DNA from: an uncultured Verrucomicrobiae bacterium
Lineage (GTDB): Bacteria > Verrucomicrobiota > Verrucomicrobiia > Chthoniobacterales > JAFAMB01
Length of the DNA: 64,000 nt
Assembly (NCBI GenBank): GCA_963762565.1
Contig: CAVXLD010000001.1
Span: 106,498-170,497, forward strand
Direction: 5' to 3'
Both the position numbers and the translations under genes were made by a program. The notes beneath the pieces are model-generated. The model saw only the letters and a list, made by a program, of their open reading frames with translations. It was not told the origin of the DNA and ran no database searches. Positions 4,247-36,614 of this stretch are shown here, in pieces (positions within the stretch are counted from its first letter, which is position 1; every line of letters begins with the position of its first letter).

Positions 4247-4256
4247 GGCGGGGGAA

Positions 4257-13070: not shown

Positions 13071-13135
13071 AACGTCCGAAAGATCGGCGCTTCGTTAGAA
13101 CCTGACGTTCTTTCGGGAGGCGCACCCTAGCAACG

Positions 13136-14233: not shown

Positions 14234-14339
14234 ATGGGCTTCTTCGGTTTTGAGTGACGCGTACTCCCAGACGCATCATTGGAGGTGATATTCAGGCTAT
14301 CATTAAGTAGAGAATGAAACAACGGAAAGGACGACCTTT

Positions 14340-14361
14340 GGTGGGGCGAGCCTCCGGAAAG
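14340..14361. repeat. Solo F1-type terminal repeat (left-end half site)
   Basis: ggtggggcgagcctccggaaag directly abuts F2 copy a. No matching right end is nearby. Confidence 0.6.
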
Positions 14362-14364
14362 ACC

Positions 14365-14583
14365 GGTAGGGCGAAAATCTCGGCGCGCCCAACGGAAACC
14401 ATTTTTTTTGTGACTCAATCGCGCCGGATTTGAGCCATGCGTGGGCCCTGCATCGTCCGGGACGCAATCGTTCTGTGGCGTGTCGAACCGTCGGAAGTTG
14501 CGGCTCCACGGAGCGGCTCAAATCCGGCGCGGTTAGACGTTTTAAAAAACGCATCCTGGGCGCGCCGAGATTTTCGCCCTACC
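14365..14583. mobile_element. F2 palindromic element, copy a (219 bp)
   Basis: TIRs ggtagggcgaaaatctcggcgcg / cgcgccgagattttcgccctacc, plus an inner inverted repeat cgcgccggatttgagcc...ggctcaaatccggcgcg. A second copy is at 32815-33032. Confidence 0.8.
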
Positions 14584-15187
14584 GGTCCTGGGTCGGCAAA
14601 GCGTGGGTACCCAAGATTCCGCGATCCGGAATACCATACGCCGTGCGCGACTCTGCAATGATACCAAGAGTATCTTTCGACTCGGGGACGAGACGATAAA
14701 TACGCCCTTTGGGGATAATCACATAATCACCGGGACGATAAGGCAGGATGCCGAACTCGGTCTCGAAGACACCAACCCCACGATGGAAGAAATAGAGTTC
14801 GTCGCCATCGACCGTTCGATAGAGGAACGGCATTGCCTCACGCCTCCGAGTTAAATAGAGCGAGAACGAACGCCGGGCACATGCCGCCATGGATTGCATC
14901 AACAAGGCCGGCGTTCCTTTCGGGTCCGCTAAATCCAGCGTCTCGATCGTCCGGCAATCCATAGCGATCGGCTTTAGAGAACCTTCAATCCGCTTCCAGG
15001 CCGAGGGCATCTCTTTAGCGTAAAGATGGGTGGCTTCACCAAAAAAGCCTTCGCGGCCATACTCCATTTCATAGGTCCCTTCCGGGACACCAACGTGCGC
15101 CTGATTCGGATAAACGCCGTTTTTAAGGGGGAAGCGCTGCATGCTGGCAATGTATTCCGGGGGCCGGGGAGCACAAGAGCGTGGCAC
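14579..15187 (-). pseudogene. hmgA: Homogentisate 1,2-dioxygenase, N-terminal about half only (truncated at the F2 element)
   Basis: 202 aa. NQAHVGVPEGTYEMEYGREGFFGEATHLYAKEMPSAW and the cupin segment DGDELYFFHRGVGVFETEFGILPYRPGDYVIIPKG resemble the short bacterial HGD family. It lies upstream of hppD. The ORF ends on a TAG inside the F2 terminal repeat, and no C-terminal half follows. Confidence 0.6.
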
Positions 15188-15206
15188 GCGGTAAGGGGTG
15201 GCAGCA

Positions 15207-15439
15207 CAAGTAAGCAGTAAGCAGTTTAGGAGCTAGAATCTAGGAGCAAGGAGGGCGGGGGCTTGGCAGCCGACGGTGCGGGTGGCATGCGAGTAATCAG
15301 TGATCGGTAAGTCAGTAGTCAGTGCTGAAGGCGGATCGATCACTGCTTACTGCTTACTTTGAGACTCCTGGCTATCTTTCGTCCAACGTCCGCCAGACCC
15401 CCGACCCGTTAGCTCCTAGATTCTAGCTCCTAGCTCCTC
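15207..15439. repeat. Composite cassette: V word (AAGCAGT), P arms, inner V*/V' hairpin
   Basis: V at 15207-15224, P at 15226-15253 (ttaggagctagaatctaggagcaaggag), inner hairpin at about 15306-15357 (gtaagtcagtagtcagtg ... cactgcttactgcttac), P' at 15409-15439. Confidence 0.8.
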
Positions 15440-15481
15440 TTTTTTCGAGCTTTCTGAACGATTCCGGCTATAAACCCTGGC

Positions 15482-15895
15482 GTGAACCTTTGGCAAAAAT
15501 TGAGCTTATTGGCTGTGGTCGCCTTGCTCTTACCCTTCGTCGCTTCAGCTCAAGAGCAGGCAAGTAAGTATCATTACGACGGGATCTACAAAGGGACGGT
15601 CCTGATCGACCTTTTGGTGAACGGAAATGACAAGCAACGGGCTAAGGCCCAGGCCGTTTTTTATCCGGACGGGCGCCTGCTCGTGTTGACGGTCGAATCG
15701 CCGCAAGTTCGCAACCCGATGAATATCAAAGGCGTGCTCCGAAAAAACGTCTTTACCGGAAACTGGAAGAAAGGGCTCTTCGGGACTGATCTTTCTGTCG
15801 AAGCCACCTTCCACAGTGGCTCCGCTGTACTCATCGTTACCGAGAAAAACAAGAAACCTGAGAAATGGTTCTTTACGAAGGTAAGCGGAGCGTGA
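15482..15895 (+). CDS. Hypothetical secreted protein
   Basis: GTG start. Signal peptide MNLWQKLSLLAVVALLLPFVASA|QE. No family recognised. Confidence 0.5.
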   Translation: MNLWQKLSLLAVVALLLPFVASAQEQASKYHYDGIYKGTVLIDLLVNGNDKQRAKAQAVFYPDGRLLVLTVESPQVRNPMNIKGVLRKNVFTGNWKKGLFGTDLSVEATFHSGSAVLIVTEKNKKPEKWFFTKVSGA

Positions 15896-15928
15896 CTTCG
15901 TTGTGAGAAGTGATGGTGAGGCGAGGCG

Positions 15929-15969
15929 GCCTCCTGGCTCCTAGATTCTAGCTTCTAGCTTCTAGCTCC
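15929..15969. repeat. P' word array overlapping the TetR stop codon
   Basis: cctcctggctcctagattctagcttctagcttctagctcc. The last TetR residues KKGARS and the stop TAG are encoded by this array. Confidence 0.8.
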
Positions 15970-16596
15970 TTTTTTGGATCGCTTCGGCGCTGTTTCTTGG
16001 GCCTGGTGCAAGCGCGCGAGCATCATCTCGATAGCTGTGTCCAGACAATGTTGCGCGGAGTATAACGTTAGGGCCCCATGGCTTCGCCGGAGAGAATCTA
16101 TGAAGATGACTCCTTCCAGCATATCGATGAGCATCTCAACGTCCGCGCCGCGCCGCGGTTTTTTTTGCTGCGAGGTCAACAGCGTGTTCATCGCCGAACG
16201 CATCGGCCTGAAAACGTCGTGCAAGACGTCGCGATGATCTTTGCTGAAATGATGCAACTCACCGAGCAGTACCCGGATGATAGGCAGACTCTCATCCATT
16301 AGCCGGTGTTGAAGCTTGGCGTAATGTAATAAAGCGGCGCGCAGGTCGCCGGGTGGCTCGTGCACAACAGGCGGCTCAATCCGCCGCGCAAAAAAACGTT
16401 CTACTACGGCGCGCAAAAGCTTTTCCTTCGTGCCAAAGCGGCGAAAGAGCGTCATTTCGCTGAGGCCGGCTTCGATGGCGATTTCCCGGGTGGTAGCGCC
16501 TTTTAGGCCTTTACGCGCAAATACCCGGGCGGCAGCATCAAGAAGTCTTTCTGCAGCGTTGCTTCTTTGGGGGGTCTGACTCTGGGGTCGACGCAC
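15955..16596 (-). CDS. TetR/AcrR family transcriptional regulator
   Basis: N-terminal HTH ARKGLKGATTREIAIEAGLSEMTLFRRFGTKEKLL. 213 aa. Confidence 0.85.
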   Translation of the reverse strand: MRRPQSQTPQRSNAAERLLDAAARVFARKGLKGATTREIAIEAGLSEMTLFRRFGTKEKLLRAVVERFFARRIEPPVVHEPPGDLRAALLHYAKLQHRLMDESLPIIRVLLGELHHFSKDHRDVLHDVFRPMRSAMNTLLTSQQKKPRRGADVEMLIDMLEGVIFIDSLRRSHGALTLYSAQHCLDTAIEMMLARLHQAQETAPKRSKKGARS

Positions 16597-16684
16597 TGAT
16601 TACCGCAAGCAAAGTCGCAAATGCTAGGCGCAAGTCAACTTTTAATCATACTTAACCTCTTACATCGGTTGATATTACGTTGAG

Positions 16685-16770
16685 GGGTTTGCAGTTTGCG
16701 GTTGACGGTTGGGGGTGGCGGCTTCGGCCGTCAATGAACCGCTAACGGCAAACCGCCAACCGCCCAACCC
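16685..16770. repeat. X-word hairpin (GGTTTGC/GGTTGAC heptamers vs complement)
   Basis: gggtttgcagtttgcggttgacggttggg (16685-16713) pairs with gaaccgctaacggcaaaccgccaaccgcccaaccc (16736-16770), with a short loop. Confidence 0.8.
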
Positions 16771-16775
16771 TCAGG

Positions 16776-16793
16776 CCGTCACAGAAATGTCAC
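16776..16793 (+). promoter_or_regulatory. Candidate Pho box
   Basis: CCGTCACAGAAATGTCAC: two GTCAC half sites with 11-bp periodicity, about 60 bp upstream of pstS. Compare the E. coli consensus CTGTCATAAAACTGTCAC. Confidence 0.45.
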
Positions 16794-16852
16794 AAAGCAG
16801 AGTTTGCCCGAAGCGCGACTTTCGATCAGTGGAAGAATGACTGCTTCAGACT

Positions 16853-17869
16853 ATGAAAACTACCTCATCACGGTTTGCCGGGTTGATCGCGCTGATCGCG
16901 ATTTCGCCTCTGTCAGTTCACGCAGCTACCCAGCTGCAGGGAGCGGGAGCAACCTTTCCGGCACCACTCTATCAGCGTTGGATCGCTGAGTTCTCCAAAG
17001 CAAACCCAGGAATTCAGATCAATTATCAAGGCGTTGGGAGCGGCGCGGGTATCAAGCAATTCACAGACGGTCTGGTGACGTTCGGCGCAAGCGATGCCGC
17101 AATGACTGACGCACAAATTGCTAAAGTAAAGCAAGGCGCGGTGCTGATTCCAGCGACCGCCGGCAGCATTGTATTGGCCTACAACCTCCCTGGGGTTGAA
17201 ACTCTGAAGTTGTCTCGCGACGCATACGCCGGGATCTTCTTGGGCAAGATCACCAAATGGAGCGACCCGGCTATAACGAAGACCAACGAGGGGGTAAAGC
17301 TTCCAGATTTGAACATTACGGTTTGCACCCGCTCTGACAGCAGCGGCACAAACTTTGTATTTACGGGCCACTTGTCTGCTATAAGCGCCGATTTTAAGAA
17401 CCAAGTTGGACAGGGAACGTCTGTGACCTGGCCTGCGGGTGTGGCCGGCCAAGGCAATGACGGCGTCACCGCGCTCATTAAACAAACCCAAGGCGCCATC
17501 GGTTACGTCGAGTACGGTTACGCAAAGAATAACAAGATTCCTTTCGCACAACTACAGAACAAAGCAGGCGAGTTCGTAGAGGCCACCCCGGCGTCTGGAG
17601 CAGCAACGCTAAATACTACTGAGTTCCCGCCGAATATTCTGCGCGCTTGGCCGAGCGATCCTGCTGCGAAAGATGCTTATCCAATCGCCACGTTCACTTG
17701 GCTTCTCCTGTACAAGACCTACAGCGACAAAGACAAGCTCGCAGAGCTAAAGAAGTTCGTAACATATGGGTTGACCGATGGCCAGAAACTGTCCGACTCT
17801 CTCGGGTATATACCTATGCCTCCTGAGGTAGTGCAGAAGTGTGAGGCTGCGTTGGCCACCGTTCAATAG
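16853..17869 (+). CDS. pstS: Phosphate ABC transporter substrate-binding protein
   Basis: Signal peptide, then ATQLQGAGATFPAPLYQRWIAEF and SDSSGTNFVFT motifs typical of PstS. Confidence 0.92.
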   Translation: MKTTSSRFAGLIALIAISPLSVHAATQLQGAGATFPAPLYQRWIAEFSKANPGIQINYQGVGSGAGIKQFTDGLVTFGASDAAMTDAQIAKVKQGAVLIPATAGSIVLAYNLPGVETLKLSRDAYAGIFLGKITKWSDPAITKTNEGVKLPDLNITVCTRSDSSGTNFVFTGHLSAISADFKNQVGQGTSVTWPAGVAGQGNDGVTALIKQTQGAIGYVEYGYAKNNKIPFAQLQNKAGEFVEATPASGAATLNTTEFPPNILRAWPSDPAAKDAYPIATFTWLLLYKTYSDKDKLAELKKFVTYGLTDGQKLSDSLGYIPMPPEVVQKCEAALATVQ

Positions 17870-17891
17870 AGCCCTTACTATAACGAATCCA

Positions 17892-18848
17892 ATGACAGAC
17901 GGAGCCGAGTCCCCGACGCCAAGCTTTCACCGAAAAGGGTTTCGGTTCGACTTGTTCCGTGTATTTACGTGGGTGGCCTCCGTGGCAACGGTTGCCACCC
18001 TCGTTTGTATTGCCGCCAGTATTCTGATCCAGGCGTGGCCGGCCATTGCTCGCTTTGGCCTGGGCTTTTTTACCACTGTCGCGTGGAAGACCAGCGATCC
18101 GGAGAACTATGGAGTGCTTCCGTACCTGGTGGGGACAGCCCTCAGCTCGCTGATCGCTCTGTTACTGGCTTTACCGCTTGGCGTTCTTATTGCGATTTTC
18201 TTGAGTGAAAATTTCTTGGCGCTTCCTCTGCGTCATACGGTTCGGTTTGTGGTAGAGCTGCTAGCGGCGATTCCCAGTGTTATATACGGATTATGGGGTA
18301 TCGCAGTGGTGATCCCCATTGTTCAGCGGATCGGCGGATCCATCGCCGGAGCGCTTGGGTTCCTGCCCCTGTTTGCAGGTCCGTCTTCCGGAAACAGCAT
18401 GCTAACCGCAAGTTTGGTTCTAGCGTTGATGGTATTGCCAACCATCACGGCGATCTCAAGAACCGCGCTGGTAGCCGTGCCTGGGCAATTGCGAGAGGGA
18501 TCGTACGCGATTGGCGCGACCCGCTGGGAGACAATTTTTGGTGTCTTGTTACCGACGGCTGCCCCCGGCATCGTGGCGGCCACGATTCTGGCGTTTGGCC
18601 GCGCCATGGGTGAAACCATGGCTGTCGCCATGCTCATTGGAAATAGCCCTCGACTGACTTGGTCGCTGCTTTCGCCGGCTGGAACACTGGCCAGTTTAAT
18701 TGCCAATAAGTTTGGTGAAGCAGAGGACTTGCAAGTGAGCGCGCTTTTGTACGCCGCATTTGCTCTGATGCTCTTTACCTTGCTGGTGAACGTTATCGGC
18801 GAGTTGGTACTACGCCGAGCCCAAAAATCAATCAGCGGGTTGCGCTAA
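17892..18848 (+). CDS. pstC: Phosphate ABC transporter permease PstC
   Basis: Polytopic, with the EAA-type loop REGSYAIGATRWETIFGVLLP. The ATG at 17892 avoids the overlap with pstS that the 17841 ORF start would create. Confidence 0.9.
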   Translation: MTDGAESPTPSFHRKGFRFDLFRVFTWVASVATVATLVCIAASILIQAWPAIARFGLGFFTTVAWKTSDPENYGVLPYLVGTALSSLIALLLALPLGVLIAIFLSENFLALPLRHTVRFVVELLAAIPSVIYGLWGIAVVIPIVQRIGGSIAGALGFLPLFAGPSSGNSMLTASLVLALMVLPTITAISRTALVAVPGQLREGSYAIGATRWETIFGVLLPTAAPGIVAATILAFGRAMGETMAVAMLIGNSPRLTWSLLSPAGTLASLIANKFGEAEDLQVSALLYAAFALMLFTLLVNVIGELVLRRAQKSISGLR

Positions 18849-18852
18849 CATC

Positions 18853-19743
18853 ATGTCGACCGCAGTTTTCAATCAAAATCTAGCGCCGGAAATGAAGGCC
18901 CAGAGCATCAGAGATCGGTTGCGCTTGGGTCGAAACCTATTTTGGACGGTGATCTGCGTCCTGGCTTCGTTTCTAACGCTGATCCCTCTCTTCTCGATCA
19001 TATTTCTGGTGGTCAGCAACGGGATTGGTTTGCTGACACCCAGCGTGTTTTTCCAGCTCCCGCCAGCTCCTGGACAAGAAGGAGGCGGTCTAGGAAATGC
19101 GATTCAGGGCACAGCGCTTATGGTCGGAATTGCGATTTTCATCGCCGCGCCTCTTGGCATTTTATCCGCCGTCTATATTTCCGAATATGACAAGCGTTCC
19201 GTGCTGGCGGCGACAGTCAGATTCATTGCCAAACTGTTGACCGGCATCCCGTCGATCATTTGTGGTATGTTCGCGTTTGCGACCATCGTCGTAAGCACCC
19301 ATACAAAATCGTCTATTGCCGGCGGCGTTGCGCTGGCGGTTCTGGCTTTGCCCACAATCCTCTTAACGGCAGAACAAGCTCTGCTAGGAGTACCGCATGC
19401 TTTGCGCGAGGCCTCGTACGGTATGGGCGCGACGAAATTTCAAACCATCTTTCGCGTGGTTTTGCCCGAAGCCGTCCCGGCAATCATGACTGGGTTAATG
19501 TTGGCAATAGCCCGAGCTGCTGGCGAAACTGCACCGGTCCTGTTCACGGCGACTTCCAGCGCGTATTGGCTCTCGTCCCTGATGGAACCGACCCAATCGC
19601 TGGCAGAGCTCATTTATCGGTTCGGTAAATATCCATACCCTCACCTGATCCAGCTGGCCTGGACCGCTTCACTGGTGCTCGTCGTTCTCGTCACCCTGAC
19701 GAATGTGACCGCCCAGTTAGTGTTTGCTAAGCGGAGACGGTAA
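18853..19743 (+). CDS. pstA: Phosphate ABC transporter permease PstA
   Basis: Polytopic, with the loop REASYGMGATKFQTIFRVVLPEA. Confidence 0.9.
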   Translation: MSTAVFNQNLAPEMKAQSIRDRLRLGRNLFWTVICVLASFLTLIPLFSIIFLVVSNGIGLLTPSVFFQLPPAPGQEGGGLGNAIQGTALMVGIAIFIAAPLGILSAVYISEYDKRSVLAATVRFIAKLLTGIPSIICGMFAFATIVVSTHTKSSIAGGVALAVLALPTILLTAEQALLGVPHALREASYGMGATKFQTIFRVVLPEAVPAIMTGLMLAIARAAGETAPVLFTATSSAYWLSSLMEPTQSLAELIYRFGKYPYPHLIQLAWTASLVLVVLVTLTNVTAQLVFAKRRR

Positions 19744-19785
19744 AAGACAGCGAATGGGCGAGTAGGCGCACCGGCGAAAGGGCGT

Positions 19786-20054
19786 GGTAGGGCGAGGCTC
19801 CCGAACACCAAGGGGTTTTCGCGGAGCTGGGATCGGACCAGACACCCATTATCGTTGCGACGCCTTAAATCCCGCCGAGCCGTGGTCCCAGCGCTCGCCA
19901 AACCGATGGGATCAGCTTCATTTTTCGGCCGTGCGCGGGGGGTGGCACGTTGAATATCCGCGGCTCGGCATTTCTAGCGGCCTTTGATCACGACGGGCAG
20001 CACACGTCGTGGTCCTTGGAAAAAGGTTTGGAAATGCGGGAGCCTCGCCCTACC
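19786..20054. mobile_element. F1 palindromic element, copy 2 (269 bp, enlarged centre)
   Basis: TIRs ggtagggcgaggctcccgaa / cgggagcctcgccctacc. The central ccgccgagccgtgg...ccgcggctcgg stem is retained around a roughly 58-bp larger interior. Confidence 0.7.
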
Positions 20055-20061
20055 AAACTGC

Positions 20062-21645
20062 TCACTTCGCATACCCCACGGGCGACTTGCCGCCGGGCTC
20101 GAGCTGAGCGGACGGCTTGGGGCCGCCCCAAAGGAACGTGATGGCGGCACTAACGACGTCGATGCTGACGCCGAACTTCCCGCTGACGTTATGGCCTAGG
20201 CTGTCGGTAAAATTGACCGCCGCGTCTTGCGCAAAAAGGTGGGCATAACCAACGTCGAACGCGACGAAAGAGCACGGCTGCCAGCGGAGCCCGGCAGAGA
20301 GGAAATAACGGCTGTTATCCGGGATCCGGGGATCTCGAGTCTGGGCGCTCTGGATCGGGGTTTCATCGTAAGCGAAGCCGGCGCGGAGCGTGAGTTGTTT
20401 TAGGGCATACCATTCAAAGCCGATCGAATAACGGAGCGAATCATCGTACTGAAGATTCAAGACGTTCGTTGGAGTAGATGGATTGCTAAAGGTGATATCG
20501 ACCTGTTGCAGCCGGTTCCAGCGAGTCCACTCAATGTCACCCATCACGGCAAATTTCTGGAGAAATCGTTGGTAGAGGCTGAAGTGATAGATCGCCGGAA
20601 GATCCAACCCGGCGCTGGCGTTTTGATTAAAGAACACATCTTGCAGTGCGCTGGGGAAAGGGAATTGGACCGGTGCTCCGATCGCGTTGAGACTCGGAAC
20701 TCCCCGAAATTCGCCAGTCCCTTGCAAAGTATGGTCGATGGCGGAGCGATAGCTAAACCCGAATCGGCCATCCTGCAGAAACTCGAGTTCGTTACCTTTG
20801 AGGTATTCGAAGATGAATCCAACAGTAAACCCCACGCTCCAATCGTCCCCTTGAACCTCGGCCACCCCATCGCGCCCTTGGGGCACGAAACCGGCCGCAG
20901 AATAGGCCCGCTCCGTCGCTGCCACCACCCCGGGGATAGCGGCCAACGGGACTCCGGAGGCGGCAAGTCGCGCCGGGAGCGCAGCATAGAAAGGAGCCAA
21001 GGTTTCCGCCCCGATCTCGCCAAAATCAATCGCTTGGGTGAGCCGGGCTGAGGCGTATTGGACGTCTAGTCCGGCTCCGATGGAAATTCTATCAAGGAAA
21101 CGGTAAGCGATAGTCGGCTGGATATCGAACGTTGTTAGTTTAGTCCTCAGCGCTGCATAGCGACCCACCCAATCGGGTTCATAGTTTGTCTCAAGACCGA
21201 AGGGAACAGTAAGTCCGATCCCGACACTCAAATCGCCGTAAACAGGACTCCGGAACAATGGTTGAGAAAGATAAACATTCGGAATCAGATGATCGACGCC
21301 AGGGTCGCCGCCATTTCCTCCGGTTAGCGGTTCATTGTTGAACGGAGTTCCGGGCGCGACTAAGTGAGAGCCCTGATTCTGGAAGGTGGCGTTGGGGATA
21401 ATAAATTGTCCGCCGATTTGCAACTGGCCCTGGTCGAGCAACGCAAGTCCGGCCGGATTGAAAAAGATGGTTGAGGCGTCCTCGGCCTGAGCAGCGCCAC
21501 CGGCATACGCGCTGCCCAAGCTGGAGACGCTTTGTTCGTTTAAAGCAAAGCTGCCCGCCCAGCTTGCCGGCGGGGTCCAAATCAGGAACGTAACAAAGCC
21601 AATTACAGTAGAGAACGACTTCCGCCATCCTGGTGCAGAGTTCAT
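20062..21645 (-). CDS. fadL: Outer-membrane long-chain fatty acid / hydrophobic compound channel (FadL/TodX/OmpP1 family)
   Basis: The ATG at 21645 gives MNSAPGWRKSFSTVIGFVTFLIWTPPASWA|GSFALNEQSVSSLGSAYAGGAA, a typical FadL N-terminus. The ORF extension to 21942 is non-homologous. Confidence 0.85.
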   Translation of the reverse strand: MNSAPGWRKSFSTVIGFVTFLIWTPPASWAGSFALNEQSVSSLGSAYAGGAAQAEDASTIFFNPAGLALLDQGQLQIGGQFIIPNATFQNQGSHLVAPGTPFNNEPLTGGNGGDPGVDHLIPNVYLSQPLFRSPVYGDLSVGIGLTVPFGLETNYEPDWVGRYAALRTKLTTFDIQPTIAYRFLDRISIGAGLDVQYASARLTQAIDFGEIGAETLAPFYAALPARLAASGVPLAAIPGVVAATERAYSAAGFVPQGRDGVAEVQGDDWSVGFTVGFIFEYLKGNELEFLQDGRFGFSYRSAIDHTLQGTGEFRGVPSLNAIGAPVQFPFPSALQDVFFNQNASAGLDLPAIYHFSLYQRFLQKFAVMGDIEWTRWNRLQQVDITFSNPSTPTNVLNLQYDDSLRYSIGFEWYALKQLTLRAGFAYDETPIQSAQTRDPRIPDNSRYFLSAGLRWQPCSFVAFDVGYAHLFAQDAAVNFTDSLGHNVSGKFGVSIDVVSAAITFLWGGPKPSAQLEPGGKSPVGYAK

Positions 21646-21807
21646 GGGGGATACAAAAACGAAGCGTTGTGGGGGAGGAATACTACAACAGCAAAAAAGT
21701 AAGAACCGTTTTTGGCCGCAGTTACAAGCCAATTCCGCTAAACCAGCAGCAAATAAGCTTGCAAAGTCGAGCTTCAGAATGAGATTGGGTTTAGCGGGAC
21801 GGCGGTG

Positions 21808-21831
21808 CTGGAAGTTAAGGCTGGAAGTTAA
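21808..21831 (+). promoter_or_regulatory. Direct repeat CTGGAAGTTAA x2 upstream of fadD (possible regulator site)
   Basis: Copies at 21808-21818 and 21821-21831, with 13-bp periodicity, in the fadL/fadD divergent region. There is also a 10-bp inverted repeat ccgctaaacc...ggtttagcgg. Confidence 0.3.
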
Positions 21832-21848
21832 TTTAACGAAGGTATCTG

Positions 21849-23699: not shown

Positions 23700-23771
23700 A
23701 GAGCGTGGCGAGGAACGTGCAGGGCGACGGTTGCAAGTGCCGGGAGGACAGGACATTTGGAATACTGAATC

Positions 23772-25061
23772 ATGAAGGAACCGATTTATATCGTTGCCGG
23801 GGTCCGCACTCCGTTTGCCAAGTCAGGGACTATCCTGGCGGACACCACGGCGATGGACCTGGGTAAGACCGTAGCCAGCCTCCTGATGGCAAAGACAGGA
23901 CTTGCGCCCGAGAAGATCGAGGAAGTCATCTTCGGATGTGTCGGGCAACCAGCGGAAGCACCTAATATCGCGCGAGTCATTGCCCTGCGTGCCGGTCTGC
24001 CTGAATCCGTGCCGGCCGTTACCGTCCATCGAAACTGCGCGTCGGGGTTCGAAGCCGTGACCCAAGCTGCCGAGAAAATGATCGCGGGTCGCGGTGATGT
24101 CTTCCTCGTGGGCGGCGTCGAAAGCATGTCACAGATACCGCTGCTTTATTCCTATGAAACTGCTAAAAAATTGGGCGCGTTCGCCCGTGCAAAAAATATT
24201 GCTCACAAATTTCAAGCGGCTACCCAATTTCGGTTAAGCGATCTGAAGCCGGAGGTTGCGTTACAGCTTGGTCTTTCCGATCCGGTTTGTGGCCTCAATA
24301 TGGGGCAAACCGCCGAGAACGTGAGTCGTGATTTCAATATTTCGCGTGAAGAACAGGACAGCTTTGCGATGCAATCCCATCATCGCGCCATTGCGGCTCG
24401 GGCGAATCTGGATGCCGAAATCACGCCGGTGTACCTGTCCAGATCTAAGAACGGCAAAGCCTACCTGCAGCAGGACAACGGGCCACGAGAGAACCAAACG
24501 ATGGAAGCTCTGGCCAAACTCAAGCCGGTGTTCGAAGCGAACACTGGTACGGTGACGGCTGGTAACTCGTCTCAAATCACGGATGGAGCAACTGCGCTTC
24601 TTTTAATGACCGAGAAAGGCTTAAAGGAGTCTGGTTTAACGCCATTAGGCCGGCTGCTCGGGTATGACTACGTGGGGCTGGATCCTGCCAGGATGGGCAT
24701 GGGGCCGATCCATGCGATTCATCGGGTAGAGCAGCGAGTCGGTCTTGGGTTGAAAGACGCCTCTATCATCGAGATCAACGAGGCCTTTGCGGCCCAGGTG
24801 CTAGCCTGTCAAAAAGCGGCTGTCTCGGCGGAATGGAGCAAGAAGCATCTCGGAAGAGATTCAGCTCTGGGAGAAATCCCGGATGAGATCCTCAACGTGA
24901 ACGGAGGAGCAATCGCTCTGGGTCACCCCGTTGGAGTGACCGGATCGCGTTTAGTGCTTACCGCGTTAAAGGAACTTCACCGTAGGCAGGCCGATAAGGC
25001 GTTGGTTGCTCTGTGCGTTGGGGGCGGCCAAGGAGGGGCGCTTTGGCTAACGCGAAATTGA
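23772..25061 (+). CDS. fadA: Acetyl-CoA C-acyltransferase (3-ketoacyl-CoA thiolase)
   Basis: Active-site Cys in VHRNCASGFEAV. C-terminal NVNGGAIALGHPVGVTGSR and CVGGGQGGA. Confidence 0.92.
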   Translation: MKEPIYIVAGVRTPFAKSGTILADTTAMDLGKTVASLLMAKTGLAPEKIEEVIFGCVGQPAEAPNIARVIALRAGLPESVPAVTVHRNCASGFEAVTQAAEKMIAGRGDVFLVGGVESMSQIPLLYSYETAKKLGAFARAKNIAHKFQAATQFRLSDLKPEVALQLGLSDPVCGLNMGQTAENVSRDFNISREEQDSFAMQSHHRAIAARANLDAEITPVYLSRSKNGKAYLQQDNGPRENQTMEALAKLKPVFEANTGTVTAGNSSQITDGATALLLMTEKGLKESGLTPLGRLLGYDYVGLDPARMGMGPIHAIHRVEQRVGLGLKDASIIEINEAFAAQVLACQKAAVSAEWSKKHLGRDSALGEIPDEILNVNGGAIALGHPVGVTGSRLVLTALKELHRRQADKALVALCVGGGQGGALWLTRN

Positions 25062-25093
25062 TATTACCCTAAAGGAATAGAAGGAAACGAAAC

Positions 25094-27226: not shown

Positions 27227-27316
27227 CCATGAAATGGTTGCAGAGCGCTCGGAAACTGACGACAACCGGCCCCGGTTTGAAAAGTGGGCGACCTCTCGGT
27301 GAGCGGTCTGCAAATC

Positions 27317-27440
27317 GGGGAGGGCGCGCGTCCCCGCGCGCCGCGAGGACGTGGCACAACCTAAAGGTGTATGTTGGCCCCCGATTACAACACATGCTCG
27401 GCTTCGGCGACAACGGATCGCGGGGACGCGATCCCTCCCG
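27317..27440. repeat. W-type cassette: GGGGAGGG + GC tetraloop hairpin ... hairpin + CCCTCCC
   Basis: ggggagggcgcgcgtccccgcgcgcc (27317-27342) and ggatcgcggggacgcgatccctccc (27416-27440). The same design recurs at 49063-49180. Confidence 0.7.
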
Positions 27441-27455
27441 GTCGCTCGGTTTCGC

Positions 27456-29360
27456 ATGCAAAGTGATAAACTAGCGTTTGACCGCAGTTATCCGCCGATC
27501 GAACGGGCGTTCGCTGGGTTCGATCCGGCAGATCTACAAGCCTATCTCGACGGAGAGTTCGTGGAGACACGAAACTTCGTGAAGAGCATCATTACCCGGC
27601 CAGAGTTTCGTTATTTCGAGGGCACTGATCTGCATGCCTATAGAAAACAGGTGCTCGACTGGTTGCGCGCGATTTCAGATGCCGGCCTGGGGCGCTTGTT
27701 TTTGCCTCCGGAGCTCGGCGGCGAGGCCAACTTAAGGAAATTGATAGCGGTCGTGGAGACCCTCAGTTTCCATGATGGGAGCCTCCTGATCAAACTCGGT
27801 GTGCAATTCGGGCTCTTCGGAGGGAGCATTCACCAGCTGGGGACGGAATATCATCATCGGGCATATTTGCCTAAAGCAGCCGCCTGCGAGTTATTCGGAG
27901 GCTTTGCCATGACCGAGATCGGTCATGGCTCAAACGTCCAAGCTTTGGAGACAACCGCTCTGTATGATGCTGAACACCGGGAATTCATCATCAACAGTCC
28001 ATCGTACAGTTCGGGGAAGACTTTTATCGGCAATGCTGCTGTCGACGGACGGTTCATGGTTGTGTTCGCGCAGTTGCATATTGGAGCCACAATCCATGGG
28101 GTCCACGCCTTCGTAGTTCCAATCCGGGATGCAAGCGGCCAGGCTCTTCCCGGGATTGCGATCGAAGACAACGGGCTCAAGCTCGGTCTTAACGGGGTAG
28201 ATAACGGTCGCATCTGGTTTCAGAACGTGCGGGTGCCTAAGACAGAACTATTGAATCGGTTTGCAGAGGTAACCGACGACGGCCAATACCGGAGCCAGAT
28301 CAAGAGCAATAATCGCCGTTTCTTCACGATGATCGGCACGTTAGTGAACGGTCGCATCACCATGGCTTTAGCCGCGAACAGTATGGCGAAATCAGCGCTT
28401 ACTATCGCGATCCGTTACGCAGCGCGTCGACGGCAATTTGGAGAAGCCGTCCAGGAAACGCTGGTGCTGGATTACCCGGCAACCCAACGGAGGCTCATGC
28501 CCTTGCTGGCCAATGTTTACGCCTTTGACTTTGCGGTGAAACGCCTTGCTCAGGTCCGCGAAACCTCGCCATCGACCAGTGCACGCCCAATCGAAACTTT
28601 AGCCGCTGGCATCAAGGCTTTCTCTACGTGGAACGCAATCCGCACTATCCAGATCTGCCGGGAAAGCTGCGGCGGCGAAGGTTATCTGTTTGTGAACCGG
28701 TTCGCGGCCCTGAAAGCTGATGCCGATATTTTCACCACCTTCGAGGGCGACAACACTGTCCTGATGCAGCTAGTCGCCAAGAACCTCCTTGGGGAGCTAC
28801 AGGACCAGCTTAAAGAGATGAAGCCTGGCCGGATTGCCCGTTTTTTTCTGGATCAGCGATTAAGAGTGCTAAAAGGGAAATTTGCCAGCCTGGCGACCGA
28901 CAGCGCCTCCGAGCTGACTCCCGAGCACCAGCTAAGTCACTTCCGGTTTCGCGAATCAACCCTGCTGCTCCGGTGCGGCGAAGCGTTTCGGCGGTTGGTT
29001 CGCCATAAGGCGATAGATGCATACTCCGCTTTTAGTCAGCTACAGCCGGAATTACTGGAGCTAGCAGAGGCTTACGCCGAACGCCAGGTGCTGGAAAGCT
29101 TTCTTCAAGGCATCACGGACATATCCAACCAAACGTTACAGCGGCCATTGCGCAAGCTGGCTGACCTTTTCGCTCTTTACCATCTGGAGAAACACAAAGG
29201 TTGGTTCTTGGAGAACGGTTTCATGTCGGCAAAAAAATCGAAGGCGATCACAAAACAGATCACTGGTTTGTGCGCCCAGGTTCGGCTTGATGCGGTCGGA
29301 CTAGTAGATGCCTTCGGTATCCCCGACCAGTGCCTCAGCGCCCCGATTGCGTTGGGGTAG
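27456..29360 (+). CDS. Acyl-CoA oxidase / ACOX-type acyl-CoA dehydrogenase
   Basis: FAMTEIGHGSNVQALETTA and NGLKLGLNGVDNGRIWFQNVRVP, about 630 aa, typical of ACOX. The ATG at 27456 avoids a repeat-encoded N-terminal extension. Confidence 0.85.
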   Translation: MQSDKLAFDRSYPPIERAFAGFDPADLQAYLDGEFVETRNFVKSIITRPEFRYFEGTDLHAYRKQVLDWLRAISDAGLGRLFLPPELGGEANLRKLIAVVETLSFHDGSLLIKLGVQFGLFGGSIHQLGTEYHHRAYLPKAAACELFGGFAMTEIGHGSNVQALETTALYDAEHREFIINSPSYSSGKTFIGNAAVDGRFMVVFAQLHIGATIHGVHAFVVPIRDASGQALPGIAIEDNGLKLGLNGVDNGRIWFQNVRVPKTELLNRFAEVTDDGQYRSQIKSNNRRFFTMIGTLVNGRITMALAANSMAKSALTIAIRYAARRRQFGEAVQETLVLDYPATQRRLMPLLANVYAFDFAVKRLAQVRETSPSTSARPIETLAAGIKAFSTWNAIRTIQICRESCGGEGYLFVNRFAALKADADIFTTFEGDNTVLMQLVAKNLLGELQDQLKEMKPGRIARFFLDQRLRVLKGKFASLATDSASELTPEHQLSHFRFRESTLLLRCGEAFRRLVRHKAIDAYSAFSQLQPELLELAEAYAERQVLESFLQGITDISNQTLQRPLRKLADLFALYHLEKHKGWFLENGFMSAKKSKAITKQITGLCAQVRLDAVGLVDAFGIPDQCLSAPIALG

Positions 29361-29365
29361 TTTAG

Positions 29366-29636
29366 AAAGGAGCTAGGAGCCAGAATCTAGGAGCTAGGGG
29401 GTGTGTCGTAGCTCCAAGATAGTCGTTCTCGTCGTCGTCCTCGTCCTCGTTCTCGATGAGGCGCGCGCTAGCATCACCGATGTGACAAACAGAGGCGTGT
29501 TCGCGAAGATCAAAGTCGTCGGTGATTCGAAAATGCCCGGAGAAAACAAACGTCTCGAGGACGAGGACGACGACGAGCACGAGAACGACTTCGGCGGAGC
29601 CACTACACGCCCTCCTAGCTCGTGGATTCTAGCTCC
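29366..29636. repeat. Two-layer nested cassette P-Q-core-Q'-P'
   Basis: P at 29366-29398, Q at 29424-29455 (cgttctcgtcgtcgtcctcgtcctcgttctcg), Q' at 29554-29587, P' at 29611-29636 (cctcctagctcgtggattctagctcc). Core is about 98 nt. Confidence 0.9.
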
Positions 29637-29653
29637 AAACTCCTTGCTCTTGT

Positions 29654-30337
29654 TCACGCGCCCTGGGCCTGGTAGACCCCCTTAAGGTCGACCGAGAGAC
29701 TCGGGTCAGCCAAGACCCGGGGATCGATCTTCAGGCTATCCGCTATAATGTGCCGGAGCCGCTCGAGATGGACGTTCTTCCGATCCAACTGATTTTGGCT
29801 GGCCCACCGGGCGGCGGCAACGATCAAGCTGGACACTTGCTCGGCCGTTAACTTCTCGGTGTTGATGATGATATCGAAATCGCTCCGATCGTTACTGTCG
29901 ATCCCGTAGAGGCGAAGGTACCGTTTCCGGTTCTGTTCGTCTCTCTGCAACGTACGGTAGAGCACGGACTCGTAGGTCAGACCTTTATCGACCTCCCGGC
30001 GGAAAATCCGCTTGGCTCGTTCCTCCAGTGAAGCCTGTAACCAAACCCGGAGATCGGCATTCACCAGCCAGGCGGCCAGGCGTGAACCCACGACTACCTT
30101 CGGCTGAAGTGAGAGCCGGATTTGATTCAAGTCGGTCAGGTAGTCGAAAGTTCGGTTCTGCTGCGATTGTTCATGAATTTCTTCAAAGCTGACTCCGATA
30201 TCGGCCGCCAAATCCCGAAAGGTGTAATTCACGACCTTGAGCCCCAAGGTCCGGCCGACATTCATTGTGGCCGTGGTGTTACCGCAACCGCTTAAACTGG
30301 AGATCGCAATCCTTAATGACTTTGAATCCGGGTGCAC
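29654..30337 (-). CDS. Cytidylate-kinase-like family protein (atypical P-loop)
   Basis: 227 aa. The P-loop-like SSLSGCGNTT has Asn where the Walker A Lys is expected. The overall layout resembles archaeal-type CMP kinase-like proteins. Its start lies 4 bp downstream of the fcl stop. Confidence 0.45.
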   Translation of the reverse strand: MHPDSKSLRIAISSLSGCGNTTATMNVGRTLGLKVVNYTFRDLAADIGVSFEEIHEQSQQNRTFDYLTDLNQIRLSLQPKVVVGSRLAAWLVNADLRVWLQASLEERAKRIFRREVDKGLTYESVLYRTLQRDEQNRKRYLRLYGIDSNDRSDFDIIINTEKLTAEQVSSLIVAAARWASQNQLDRKNVHLERLRHIIADSLKIDPRVLADPSLSVDLKGVYQAQGA

Positions 30338-30341
30338 GCCG

Positions 30342-31271
30342 TTAAACTTTCCTGTTTTTGAGAAACCATTCGTACGTCGACTCGATCCCTTTACGCAGAG
30401 GGATCTTTGCCTGCCAGCCCAGCTTGCTGAGCTTGCTCACATCTAGAAGCTTCTGCGGCGTTCCATCCGGCTTGGTGCTGTCAAATTCCAGCGTCCCGGT
30501 AAAGCCGACGACGTCGCAAACCAACTCCGCCAACTCTCGAATCGTCACATCCCGGCCGCAGCCAACGTTAACGATCTCGGGGGAGTCATAGTGCTCGATC
30601 AGAAACGCAACCGCATCCGCTAAATCGTCGGTGTGCAAAAATTCGCGCCTCGGATTACCTGTGCCCCAAACGACGATGCTTGCGTTGCCGGAGACTTTGG
30701 CTTCGTGCGCCTTTCTTAGCAAGGCTGCCAGGACATGTGAGTTCTGCAGGTCGAAGTTGTCGTCCGGACCATAGATGTTTGTCGGCATCAGGGAAACAAA
30801 GTTCGCCCCGTATTGGCGAGCGTAAGCCTGACAAAGTTTGATCCCGGTTATCTTCGCCAATGCATAGGGTTCGTTGGTGGCCTCAAGCGGACCCGTCAAT
30901 AGGGCATCTTCAGATATGGGTTGAGGCGCGAGCCGCGGATAAATGCACGAGCTTCCCAAGAAGAGCAGCTTCTTCACACCGGCCAGAAAGCTCGCAGCAA
31001 TGACGCTGTTTTGGATTTCCAGGTTTTCTAATAGGAACTCAACGGGAGACTGGTAGTTCGCCTGAATCCCACCCACTTTGGCCGCCGCCACGACGACTAC
31101 TTGGGGCTTGGCAGCCTTGAGGAATTCTTCGACTGCTCCCCGCTCCCGCAGATCAAGTTCCTGTCTGGTTCTTGTGAACAGCTCGATCCCGGGTTTCTGC
31201 GCGAGATTGCGAACGATCGCGCTCCCTACTAAACCTCGATGGCCAGCGACAAAAACGGAGCGGAATCGCAT
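30342..31271 (-). CDS. fcl: GDP-L-fucose synthase (GDP-4-keto-6-deoxymannose epimerase/reductase)
   Basis: VFVAGHRGLVGSAI Rossmann motif, YALAKITGIK (YxxxK). 309 aa, collinear with Fcl/WcaG. Confidence 0.92.
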   Translation of the reverse strand: MRFRSVFVAGHRGLVGSAIVRNLAQKPGIELFTRTRQELDLRERGAVEEFLKAAKPQVVVVAAAKVGGIQANYQSPVEFLLENLEIQNSVIAASFLAGVKKLLFLGSSCIYPRLAPQPISEDALLTGPLEATNEPYALAKITGIKLCQAYARQYGANFVSLMPTNIYGPDDNFDLQNSHVLAALLRKAHEAKVSGNASIVVWGTGNPRREFLHTDDLADAVAFLIEHYDSPEIVNVGCGRDVTIRELAELVCDVVGFTGTLEFDSTKPDGTPQKLLDVSKLSKLGWQAKIPLRKGIESTYEWFLKNRKV

Positions 31272-31304
31272 GAGGCAGCTTAGCTAACGCGTTTTTTTGG
31301 ACTG

Positions 31305-31496
31305 GTCAACGGCAGAGGAGCTAGGAGCTAGAATCTAGGAGCTAGGAGGGTACGGACAAAAGTGGACGGAGTGGACTGAGTAGACGCAGTGGACAGAGTG
31401 GAACCGGCCACCGGCCGATGCGCCTGATTGCGTCCACTAAGTCCACACTGTCCCCGCCGATACGCCGACACGCCCTCCTAGCTCCTGGATTCTAGC
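31305..31496. repeat. Multi-word nested cassette P-R-core-R'-S'-P'
   Basis: P at 31305-31340, R at 31351-31391 (agtggacggagtggactgagtagacgcagtggacagagtgg), R' at 31420-31443, S' at 31444-31464 (ccgccgatacgccgacacgcc), P' at 31464-31496. Lies in the fcl/ribBA divergent region. Confidence 0.85.
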
Positions 31497-31558
31497 TCCT
31501 GGCTCCCTTCTTCGGATTCGACAACGGCGTTAGGCCGAGTTTCTTATACCCCATCTTA

Positions 31559-32779
31559 ATGGTAAGTTTAAACGACCTTATGAACTTTGAGTTCGATCCG
31601 ATCGAGGAGGCGCTGGTCGCCTTGCGCGAGGGAAAGCCGGTGATTGTGACCGACGACGCTCAGCGTGAAAATGAGGGCGACCTGATTTTGGCAGCGGAAA
31701 AGGCGACTCCAGAGACGATCAGTTTCATGATTCGTTACACCTCGGGCGTGATTTGTGTTCCGATGGAAGGTTCCGCTCTGGACCGTTTGGATTTGCCTTT
31801 GATGACCCGAAGGAATACCGAGTCAATGCGCACGGCATATACCATCTCGGTCGACGCAAAGAATGGGGTCACGACCGGAATATCGGCGGCGGACCGCTCT
31901 CGAACGATCCGACTCCTGGCGGACCCAAGTACCGAGGTCGACGATCTGGTTAGGCCGGGGCACGTTTTCCCCCTACGGTATCGTCGGGGCGGCGTGTTGC
32001 GCCGAGCTGGCCATACAGAGGCGGCAGTCGATTTAGCCCGGCTGGCAGGACTACGTCCAGCCGGCGTTCTGGCTGAAATCGTCAACGATGACGGCACCAT
32101 GGCACGCTTGCCGGAGCTCTTTGCCTTTAAGGACAAGTTTGGCCTCAAGATATGCACGATCGAAAATCTGATCGCTTACCGGCGGGTTCGAGAAAAACTC
32201 ATCGTCAAAGAGACAGATGTCGAACTGCCGACGGACTACGGCGATTTTCGGTTGCATCTCTATCGATCCGTTGTGGACAATGTCCATCACCTGGCGCTTA
32301 CGACCGGACCTTTGCCGCCGGTAAACCCAACGCTGGTTCGGGTGCATAGCGAGTGTTTAACCGGTGATGTGTTCGGTTCTCGCCGATGCGACTGCGGCAA
32401 TCAACTGCACGCCGCGTTACAGCAGATTCAAAATGAGGGTGCAGGTATCCTCGTATACATGAGACAGGAAGGCCGAGGGATCGGCTTAGCCGCCAAGATC
32501 CAGGCTTACAAACTCCAGGAAGAGGGTCTCGACACGGTCCAGGCAAACGAGAAACTCGGTTTCCCTAGCGATCTGCGCGAGTATGGCCTCGGGGCACAGA
32601 TTTTAGTCGATCTTGGAGTCCACGATATCCGTCTACTCACGAATAACCCAAAGAAAGTCATTGGGCTGGAAGGTTACGGTCTAAACATCATCGACCAGAT
32701 CCCGATCCGGGTTCCGGCGAATCCGCACAACGAGAAGTATCTCGAAACCAAAAAACTTAAGCTGGGACACTTGCTGTAA
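31559..32779 (+). CDS. ribBA: Bifunctional 3,4-dihydroxy-2-butanone-4-phosphate synthase / GTP cyclohydrolase II
   Basis: DDAQRENEGDLI (DHBP synthase) and VRVHSECLTGDVFGSRRCDCG (GCH II zinc site). Confidence 0.95.
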   Translation: MVSLNDLMNFEFDPIEEALVALREGKPVIVTDDAQRENEGDLILAAEKATPETISFMIRYTSGVICVPMEGSALDRLDLPLMTRRNTESMRTAYTISVDAKNGVTTGISAADRSRTIRLLADPSTEVDDLVRPGHVFPLRYRRGGVLRRAGHTEAAVDLARLAGLRPAGVLAEIVNDDGTMARLPELFAFKDKFGLKICTIENLIAYRRVREKLIVKETDVELPTDYGDFRLHLYRSVVDNVHHLALTTGPLPPVNPTLVRVHSECLTGDVFGSRRCDCGNQLHAALQQIQNEGAGILVYMRQEGRGIGLAAKIQAYKLQEEGLDTVQANEKLGFPSDLREYGLGAQILVDLGVHDIRLLTNNPKKVIGLEGYGLNIIDQIPIRVPANPHNEKYLETKKLKLGHLL

Positions 32780-32814
32780 GGTGAGAAGTGAGAGGTGATT
32801 AGTGGGACGTGACT

Positions 32815-33032
32815 GGTAGGGCGAAAATCTCGGCGCGGCCTACGGGAACCACCTTCCTGGCTGAACCGCGCCGGATTTGAGCCATGCGTGCGCGGTGTAT
32901 TGCCCACGACGTTATTGCTCACCGTCGGATCGAAGCCAGCGAGGTGGTCCATCCACGGCGCGGCTCAAATCCGGCGCGCACGGTCCCAGCGCAGGTGGCC
33001 CATCCTCAACGCGCCGAGATTTTCGCCCTACC
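32815..33032. mobile_element. F2 palindromic element, copy b (218 bp)
   Basis: It has the same 23-bp TIRs and inner cgcgccggatttgagcc / ggctcaaatccggcgcg repeat as copy a. Lies between ribBA and ribH. Confidence 0.8.
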
Positions 33033-33046
33033 GGAGTCTCGGCCAT

Positions 33047-33066
33047 TTCGGGAGCCTCGCCCTACC
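33047..33066. repeat. Solo F1-type terminal repeat (right-end half site)
   Basis: ttcgggagcctcgccctacc lies 14 bp after F2 copy b. This mirrors the F1 left half next to F2 copy a. Confidence 0.6.
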
Positions 33067-33114
33067 ATCCTGGCCCTTGCGGGCAATCTTGGCCGGAGTA
33101 TCGTCCCAAGCTCA

Positions 33115-36576: not shown

Positions 36577-36614
36577 CGAGTCCATCCAAAGCGCGATACA
36601 GGCTCGTATCACGT

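Follow-up and report, generated by a model that had tools for sequence, protein, structure and literature searches.

The GTAG-tagged repetitive extragenic palindromes (REPs) form stem-loops of 20-40 bp that carry an unpaired GTAG at one end (variants are GTRG and, in Opitutus terrae, GTGG); the stems measure 6-13 bp and are sometimes bulged, and the loops are mostly 2-3 nt and up to 27 nt long (PMC3733652). Their subfamilies are defined by complementary stem variants, and G:T pairs are frequent (PMC3733652). REP dimers are common, and in most of them the tags point outward; the spacer within a dimer is 20-100 bp long and frequently structured. Trimers, in which a singleton stands beside a dimer, and hybrid dimers of different families also occur (PMC3733652). 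REPs are mostly located downstream of genes, in some species the dimers are inserted inside palindromic targets, and GTAG REPs are present in the verrucomicrobium O. terrae (PMC3733652). The REP-associated tyrosine transposase (RAYT) of Escherichia coli acts on single-stranded DNA, for which the GTAG tag and the stem bulge are recognition determinants, and in Marinomonas the tag variant of the REP is linked to the flanking dinucleotide (PMC8266576). In Pseudomonas putida and P. fluorescens, genes for tyrosine transposases lie between degenerate GTAG units joined to unrelated stem-loops (PMC3733652). In this study, these systems were compared with F2, a palindromic repeat with two copies, F2a and F2b, in a 64,000-nt stretch of DNA from an uncultured Verrucomicrobiae bacterium (contig CAVXLD010000001.1, positions 106,498 to 170,497; the whole stretch is referred to as the window).

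F2 is best explained as a non-coding, non-autonomous palindromic repeat of soil Chthoniobacterales (Verrucomicrobiota) similar to the REP doublets forming hairpins (REPINs), which in the window is nested in gene spacers that an older family, F1, already occupied, and which would be spread in trans by an enzyme of the RAYT type. We put the probability of this explanation at roughly 0.6, a figure that also covers the proposal that F1 is an older sister family, in which the tag and the first bases of the stem are those of F2. The initial annotation had described two elements of 218/219 bp with 23-bp terminal inverted repeats and an inner inverted repeat around a variable centre, and this description held. 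The ends of both copies (GGTAGGGCGAAAATCTCGGCGCG / CGCGCCGAGATTTTCGCCCTACC) are perfect 23-bp inverted repeats, and the inner repeats, CGCGCCGGATTTGAGCC on the left and GGCTCAAATCCGGCGCG on the right, are the same in F2a and F2b. The centre and both loops differ between the two copies, and the mean column identity over the aligned regions, flanks included, was 78%. As single-stranded DNA, F2a folds with -81.6 kcal/mol, compared to -42.1 +/- 3.5 kcal/mol for shuffled sequences (z = -11.3).

The two ends of F2 are similar to the inner repeats of the opposite side, the left end to the inner-right repeat and the right end to the inner-left one. Thus, each outer third of F2 can fold on itself, as 5'-GGTAG / GGC GA AAATC T CGGCGCG - loop of ~30 nt - CGCGCCG GATTT GA GCC. 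The resulting arms of 66-72 nt start with five unpaired bases, GGTAG, which contain GT[AG]G, followed by a bulged stem of ~15 bp and the loop, so that the plan of the whole element is two outer hairpins facing each other around a third, variable hairpin. Each of the four arms of the window, folded alone as DNA, formed a hairpin with GGTAG unpaired at -15 to -19 kcal/mol. The RNAalifold consensus of 88 arms likewise left GGTAG unpaired, as in GTAG-tagged REPs, and contained a 13-pair stem with a one-base bulge and a 2x2 internal loop, in which 98.3% of the cells were paired. Moreover, at the stem pair 14:66, 77 arms had U:A, 7 had A:U and 2 had C:G. In the nine variant arms, the partner base in the opposite end of F2 was unchanged, by which the end-to-end pair of a rod-like fold is broken and the local pair is kept. 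Cells with double changes numbered 9, compared to 1.0 +/- 1.0 in shuffles (none of 500 reached 9), and all slid registers were far worse. The palindromic stem behind the tag thus has compensatory changes, as REP stems do, at a single covarying pair. While the sequence can adopt both the local hairpin and the rod, the covariation at this one pair shows that the local arm hairpin matters. A four-way (cloverleaf) fold closed by GGTAGGGCG/CGCCCTACC was also considered, and the variation was uninformative about it either way.

F2 is dispersed. A scan for the exact 23-nt end, with one genome per species, identified 61 loci, 60 of which were from four metagenome-assembled genomes (MAGs) of soil Verrucomicrobiota/Chthoniobacterales and one from a contig labelled Actinomycetota. 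By our own count, about 7 to 22 loci with the exact end were found per incomplete MAG. These loci and the window constitute the F2 catalogue, and the DNA searched overall amounted to 871 kb; loci outside the window are designated by L numbers. F2 elements with both ends numbered 49, were 77-488 bp long with a mode of ~225 bp and had unrelated flanks. Both arms were present in 43 of the 49 elements. Copies reduced to half, a single hairpin, were also common, and mini elements of 77-87 bp consisted of the two ends and one loop. No direct repeat of the flanks indicative of a target-site duplication was found in the 49 F2 or in 18 F1 copies; within ~20 nt, the flanks of F2 more frequently continued as inverted repeats than as direct repeats. 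In the longer copies (L006, L025, L052 and L057), other palindromic repeats were inserted in the loops or the centre; the guest elements lie in loops predicted for F2. The guests in L006, L025 and L057 belong to a further palindromic repeat family with the ends ...CCTGGAGGGGAGCCGCTTTG / CAAAGCGGCTCCC....

F2 and F1 are located mostly downstream of genes. According to crude calls of open reading frames (ORFs), the neighbouring gene pairs of F2 were 21 tandem, 15 convergent and 7 divergent, and those of F1 were 7, 9 and 1, respectively, which gave 24 convergent versus 8 divergent pairs for the two families pooled. The polarity of F2 relative to transcription was dropped as a test, as the symmetric consensus gives no reliable orientation. 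Both F1 and F2 generally sit in the middle of palindromes: for 11 of 45 F2 and 8 of 18 F1 elements, the mutual complementarity of the flanks exceeded the 95th percentile of mismatched controls. In many spacers, tandem 7-9-nt repeats (GGAGCTA, CACCAAT, CGCCAAA, GTCCTCG, AGTGGAC and others) form nested palindromes, in which the repeat is inverted on the far side and another palindrome lies in the centre. The same tandem-repeat shells surround F1 or F2 in relatives, and L052 has one within a loop of F2 itself. Inverted arrays of the 8-mer GGGCGAAW flanked about a fifth of F2 copies (L024, L035, L038, L049, L054 and L058). These arrays resemble the F2 head GGGCGAAAA, and in L035 (5480) an array unit takes the place of GGTAG in the head; thus, the arrays may arise from F2 termini. 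An association of GTAG and GTGG tags with different flanking dinucleotides, as in Marinomonas, had no support, as F1 was flanked by T/A and F2 mostly by C/G whatever the tag.

The F1 elements are built on a plan like that of F2: they have a head GGT[GA]GGGCGAGGCTCCCGAA, arms that vary, and in the centre a hairpin, CGCGCCGAGCCGTGG...CCACGGCTCGGCGCG, that is conserved. The F1 ends read GTGG or GTAG. As the initial annotation had noticed, the two families begin alike: their common terminus is GGT[AG]GGGCGA (the first 10 nt), and they have further motifs in common, such as CTCGGCGCG. In the window, GGTAGGGCGA with at most one mismatch occurs 17 times, compared to 3.9 +/- 1.9 times in shuffles (none of 100 reached 17), and 12 of the 17 matches are the paired ends of six elements, namely three F1, two F2 and one of a third family. 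The core of this third family reads CGGCCTCGCAAGCGAGGC[AG]CGCTCCA, and fragments of it lie at 49219-49295 and 43193-43221. A second F1-type right head (TCGCCCTACC) with the same next bases, AATCAC, lies at 8134-8149, 40 nt beyond the end of the F1 at 8109. It seems to be either what is left on the outside of a previous F1 in this position or the product of a local duplication.

Table 1. Features of the window, and contents of the ribBA-ribH spacer in relatives.
Feature	Position	Length	Strand	Remarks
F2a, complete F2 element	14365-14583	219 bp	.	rod fold; each 72-nt arm also folds alone as GGTAG plus hairpin
F2a left end	14365-14387
F2a left loop	14388-14419
F2a inner-left repeat	14420-14436
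F2a variable centre	14437-14514
F2a inner-right repeat	14515-14531
F2a right loop	14532-14560
F2a right end	14561-14583
F2b, complete F2 element	32815-33032	218 bp	.	ends 32815-32837 and 33010-33032; inner repeats 32867-32883 and 32962-32978
F2-head match GGTAGGGCGAAAA	36794-36806	13 nt	+	isolated, in decayed toxin-antitoxin-like stretch
Complete F1	7899-8109	211 bp	.	centred in inverted GTGATTR arrays
Complete F1	19786-20054	269 bp	.
Complete F1	46801-47011	211 bp	.
Third-family element	52097-52317		.	same head (GGTGGGGCGAGGCC...GCCTCGCCCTACC), different interior
Probable partner terminus of decayed F1 (TTCTAAGCGAGGCGCTCCGGAAAC)	12282-12305		+	weak match
IS200-like element nested in decayed F1	12379-13069		+	73-nt inverted ends 12379-12451 and 12997-13069; Y1 transposase gene 12541-12966
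Decayed F1 terminus (reverse complement GCTAGGGTGCGCCTCCCGAAAGAAC)	13107-13131		-	4 nt after hppD stop; orthologous to complete F1 in L144 and L145
hppD (4-hydroxyphenylpyruvate dioxygenase), intact	13136-14233		-	across the F1 remnant and F2a from hmgA
F1 remnant terminus GGTGGGGCGAGCCTCCGGAAAGACC	14340-14364		+	abuts F2a directly; orthologous to hppD-proximal terminus of complete F1 in L144
Junction ggtcctgggtcgg	14584-14596	13 nt	.	between F2a and truncated hmgA
hmgA-like (homogentisate dioxygenase-type) pseudogene without 3' half	14597-15187		-	partial Pfam HgmA_N match
ribBA	31559-32779		+	upstream neighbour of F2b
7-nt tandem repeat shell GTGAGAA GTGAGAG GTGATTA GTGGGAC GTGACTG	32780-32814		+	from ribBA stop to F2b (family D12)
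F1 right-arm remnant with exact right terminus	33033-33066		-	terminus 33047-33066 (family D10)
ribH (lumazine synthase)	33115-33591		+	downstream neighbour of F2b
Nested-palindrome spacers	50-250, 1488-1605, 4256-4545, 6292-6423, 9548-9643, 15216-15442, 29363-29648, 31311-31511, 39972-40222, 50167-50332
ribBA-ribH spacer, L065				F1 with intact right end
ribBA-ribH spacer, L062 and L068				F2 copies of A:T subfamily, inside GGAGCTA arrays
ribBA-ribH spacer, L067				decayed F2 half
ribBA-ribH spacer, L063, L066, L069 and L070				other tandem-repeat palindromes

F2a lies in the spacer between hmgA and hppD, where the initial annotation had placed a solo F1 left terminus immediately before it. 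This terminus was verified: it has one mismatch in 16 positions against the F1 terminus model and is 92% identical to the left end of the F1 copy at 7897-7921 (repeat family D17). The locus was compared with L144 and L145, both at 92% HPPD identity. In L144, the hmgA-hppD spacer contains a complete F1 of 333 bp, and the window is collinear with L144 from 14362 downward through the hppD leader, with 81% identity (blastn and alignment). The segment 14340-14362 is thus orthologous to an end of the F1 in L144, and the supposed solo terminus is the hppD-proximal end of a resident F1, with F2a 25 nt inside it. The far end of this F1 is missing because of a local deletion into hmgA, in which the 3' half of hmgA was lost as well. 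Homology of the hmgA-type gene to full-length orthologs of 387-389 amino acid residues ends at 14597, after ...GILGTHAL, so that the gene lacks at least 205 codons; aligned to L142 at the nucleotide level, it lacks 777 nt, and the missing part is nowhere else in the window. The truncated gene is read as an ORF at 14579-15187, of which the stop codon TAG is supplied by the F2 head. The 13-nt junction between F2a and hmgA may be the inner tail or last trace of the lost F1 arm. L145 has a full hmgA before hppD and another palindrome in the 320-bp spacer. In L144, all of hmgA is lost except the last ~27 nt; L144 thus lost hmgA differently from the window, and hmgA is decaying independently in this lineage.

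F2b has ribBA upstream and ribH downstream and therefore lies between two riboflavin biosynthesis genes of the same strand. The solo F1 right terminus that had been reported 14 bp past F2b matches the F1 right end exactly (TTCGGGAGCCTCGCCCTACC). Among 80 ribBA loci from metagenomes, the ribBA-ribH spacer was 12-58 bp in most of the distant relatives, and in relatives at 88-95% RibBA identity its content was different in each (Table 1). The centres of F2 also differ among these loci, and these copies are therefore separate arrivals in a hot spot. The adjacency of ribBA and ribH is kept in nearly all relatives that cover both genes, with or without repeats, and this unchanged gene order excludes an exchange of flanks between the two F2 loci of the window. 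The array in front of F2b (GTGAGAG GTGATTA GTGGGA...) is of the type that precedes the F1 head in L041 and is also found after ribBA in L066. Thus, the surroundings of F2b are those of an F1 that has lost its left head. No record was found by exact-match lookup of the RibH and RibBA proteins of the window. The start of ribH is most likely at 33115; a 235-aa ORF at 32884-33591 stays open across most of F2b and continues into ribH, and automatic annotation could over-extend ribH accordingly. A further F2-head fragment that had been noted near 36786 exists as a 13-nt match; it lies within a decayed antitoxin/PIN-like pair (36573-37050, read by eye only) and may be the footprint of a lost element or a chance match.

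A reciprocal association of F2 with F1 half-sites through recurrent junctions, as the initial annotation had proposed, was not borne out by the catalogue. Among 120 F2-type termini in the 871 kb, four had an F1-type terminus within 80 nt outward, and one of these, L053, was a tandem-repeat false positive. The true cases are the two loci of the window and L010, plus one degenerate case, L056. L010 has a mini-F2 enclosed by a pair of inverted F1/F3-like termini, of which the left one is 2 nt away from it and the right one directly adjoins it. The nesting depths are 25, 34 and 15 nt, and thus there is no recurrent junction. What stands of the proposed insertion is that F2 lies inside or against F1 material in the window and in L010, with full F1 elements in both spacers of relatives; what does not stand is that a single F1 was split.

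These results suggest that F1 was already resident in both spacers when F2 entered, and that the solo F1 termini are what remains of it. F2 would have spread as single-stranded DNA, mobilized in trans by an HUH tyrosine enzyme of the RAYT type, which may read the GT[AG]G tag and the stem. This enzyme may be common to F1 and F2, which the initial annotation had offered as its second alternative and which is a reasonable proposal. Entry would be into the loops of hairpins, as these expose single strands. At the ribBA-ribH locus, the left F1 head might have been lost by slippage between two direct GGTAGGGCGA heads, as one possible route.

A candidate for the enzyme was sought in the 871 kb by tblastn with RAYT and IS200 probe sequences and with the Y1 protein of the window, and no Y1 gene was found besides the one at 12541-12966. 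This gene matches PF01797 (E 1.6e-21) and NF033573 (58.8 bits, cut-off 55). It belongs to an IS200-like element that is nested in a decayed F1, and the Rfam hit Acido-Lenti-1 ('sRNA') at 13018-13063 is part of the right end of this element, with a mirror copy in the left end. The motif, mirrored in both ends, may thus be a transposon end rather than an sRNA. The initial annotation had suggested looking for a transposase or recombinase gene with GGTAGGGCGA ends, and none was found in the 871 kb. Head pairs more than 500 bp apart proved to be F1 elements invaded by IS481-like or IS200-like insertion sequences (ISs), and neither of the two is an autonomous F1 or F2: window 12282-13131 is the decayed F1 invaded by the IS200-like element with other ends, and in the F1 at L041 2562-4158, an IS481-like IS with its own inverted ends and a 408-aa ORF has entered 18 nt inside the left end.

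Several results weigh against the proposed mobilization of F2 by a RAYT-type enzyme. The Y1 gene of the window scored 26 bits against the RAYT model NF047646 (REP_Tyr_transpos; cut-off 80) and thus as IS200-type, its 73-nt ends are unrelated to F1 and F2, and L144 and L145 have a complete F1 and no transposase after hppD. No RAYT gene flanked by F1 or F2 arms, i.e., no REPtron, was found in the 871 kb. The thermodynamic optimum of the whole element was the rod in 41 of 41 copies. The covariation is limited to one stem pair, and the copies are related, so that the changes perhaps represent two or three events. With ~30-nt loops, the F2 arms of 66-72 nt also exceed the 20-40 nt of REPs. By our own estimate, the adjacency of F1 and F2 is expected by chance ~0.4 times genome-wide and a few times if both are confined to the roughly 10% of DNA that is intergenic, which makes the excess weak. 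Finally, relatives have other repeats in these spacers, so that no clean pair of a filled and an empty site was obtained for F1 or F2, and both the insertion junctions and the absence of target duplication rest on inspection of the flanks.

Different from a classical RAYT, another single-strand DNA system could have built the spacers by inserting hairpin elements into the loops of other hairpins, although we regard this as unlikely. If true, the spacers would be onion-like nested palindromes, in which short-tandem-repeat shells, F1, F2 and IS200-like elements lie inside one another. Such a system may also make the flanking 7-9-nt tandem arrays from the head sequence, for instance (GGGCGAAW)n in L035 and the GT[AG]G-phased arrays beside F1.

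F1 and F2 might instead be ordinary miniature inverted-repeat transposable elements (MITEs), i.e., deletion derivatives of an IS whose DDE transposase binds double-stranded ends beginning with GGTAGGGCGA. The perfect 23-bp inverted ends, the MITE-like sizes and the first 10 bp common to both families agree with this. However, the 49 copies have no target-site duplication, no gene bounded by such ends was found in the 871 kb, and the two long head-to-head pairs are the IS481-like and IS200-like elements in F1, each with different ends of its own, so that no parent IS was found. Moreover, the covariation couples each end with the inner repeat of the same half and not with the other end, and single-hairpin halves are common. 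We therefore consider an origin of F2 as a MITE improbable.

To the same low degree we credit the possibility that F2 is a structured RNA or another transcript-level element (an mRNA-stabilizing or processing hairpin, or a terminator) whose conservation reflects RNA function. F2b lies between ribBA and ribH, the elements are mostly downstream of genes, the hairpin is very stable, and single changes that keep a G:U pair outnumber those that give A.C by 22 to 10 (our own count). However, the consensus is truly palindromic, so that neither strand is distinguished, and the centre and loops are highly variable. Rfam 15 gave no match at E <= 1 for 14300-14620; at the gathering score, Acido-Lenti-1, elsewhere, was the only match in the window. 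In addition, one and the same spacer is occupied by different F2 copies in close relatives, which indicates turnover rather than a conserved regulator. A side effect of F2 on transcripts may nevertheless exist, as it is compatible with these objections.

Somewhat less probable still is that F1 and F2 have only a habitat in common, as independent repeats that accumulate in a few tolerant spacers and sometimes come to lie side by side. Just three of the 120 F2 termini have an F1 end within 80 nt, where a few would be expected by chance in intergenic DNA, and relatives carry repeats of many kinds in their ribBA-ribH and hmgA-hppD spacers. The three cases, however, are nested in the same orientation at 2-18 nt, L010 has F1-like ends on both sides of F2 at depths of 15 and 18 nt, and F1 and F2 are significantly centred in palindromes generally. 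It is most improbable that 14340-14364 and 33047-33066 are the halves of one F1 that was split by F2 and parted by 18 kb through recombination between the F2 copies, as had been suggested because one locus keeps only the left end and the other only the right end: each half-site belongs to its own locus, since the left one and its flank are orthologous to a complete F1 end at the same place in L144, the ribBA-ribH adjacency is conserved and the deletion into hmgA explains the missing end, and after an inversion between the F2 copies the F1 right end would be expected to the left of the second F2, contrary to what is seen.

If F2 is a REPIN-like repeat, GTAG-tagged REP/REPIN-like repeats extend to soil Chthoniobacterales, at about three times their usual size, and GGT[AG]GGGCGA together with the bulged stem is a lead toward the cognate enzyme. 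The interest lies chiefly in the nested spacer architecture of this lineage. These repeats remodel genomes: the hmgA-hppD and ribBA-ribH spacers are hot spots whose content varies among relatives at 88-95% protein identity, and one element complex stands at the edge of the deletion that truncated hmgA. For annotation, these elements create stop codons and long spurious ORFs, and their "half sites" are decay products, not recombination signals.

Compared with known systems, the IS200-like element of the window is similar to IS200 and to the TIR-flanked tyrosine transposases (TIRYTs/TIRtrons) in its tyrosine transposase gene and its 73-nt structured inverted ends, here nested in F1. Its unrelated ends, its IS200 score and its absence from the site in relatives are different from what the mobilizer of F1 and F2 would have, and it is a guest in F1, not evidently their mobilizer. 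F2 is similar to bacterial MITEs (for example Correia/NEMIS, RUP and Nezha) in its size, its terminal inverted repeats, its position between genes and its rod-like fold. In MITEs, the ends are those of a parent IS and the target is duplicated (TA for Correia); neither was seen for F2. The F1-F2 groups are also similar to the bacterial interspersed mosaic elements (BIMEs) of enterobacteria, mosaics of the REP types Y, Z1 and Z2, in that subtypes sharing a tag stand side by side in one spacer. Different from BIMEs, however, F1 and F2 are nested, the younger in the older and with decay, and not in ordered alternation with defined linkers.

The closest similarity is to the REPs and REPINs of the RAYT/TnpA-REP system (PMC3733652, PMC3116915, PMC8266576); on repeats of Chthoniobacter itself, a search of the literature gave no specific result. 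Similar to these, F2 has an unpaired GT[AG]G at the foot of a bulged hairpin and consists of two inverted hairpins with the tags outside (a head-to-head, or HH, dimer) around a structured spacer, and the whole can fold as one hairpin. Complementary stem variants that form subfamilies, G:T pairs, the lack of target duplication and the location downstream of genes are common to both, as are the high copy number and the extragenic position, mostly between tandem or convergent gene pairs. Singletons beside dimers, mixed-family groups, insertion in palindromes and persistence at orthologous sites are found for F1 and F2 as for REPs. Different from REPINs, the whole F2 is ~220 bp compared to ~70-110 bp, about three times larger, its spacer is a long variable hairpin, its host is an uncultured Chthoniobacterales lineage, and neither RAYT nor REPtron was found in the 871 kb. 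As the tag, the hairpin and the HH dimer fit while the size does not and the enzyme was not found, F2 is classified by analogy as probably working like a REPIN, its membership being unproven. F2 is thus a new family, but one that belongs to a known kind of repeat, and no novel mechanism.

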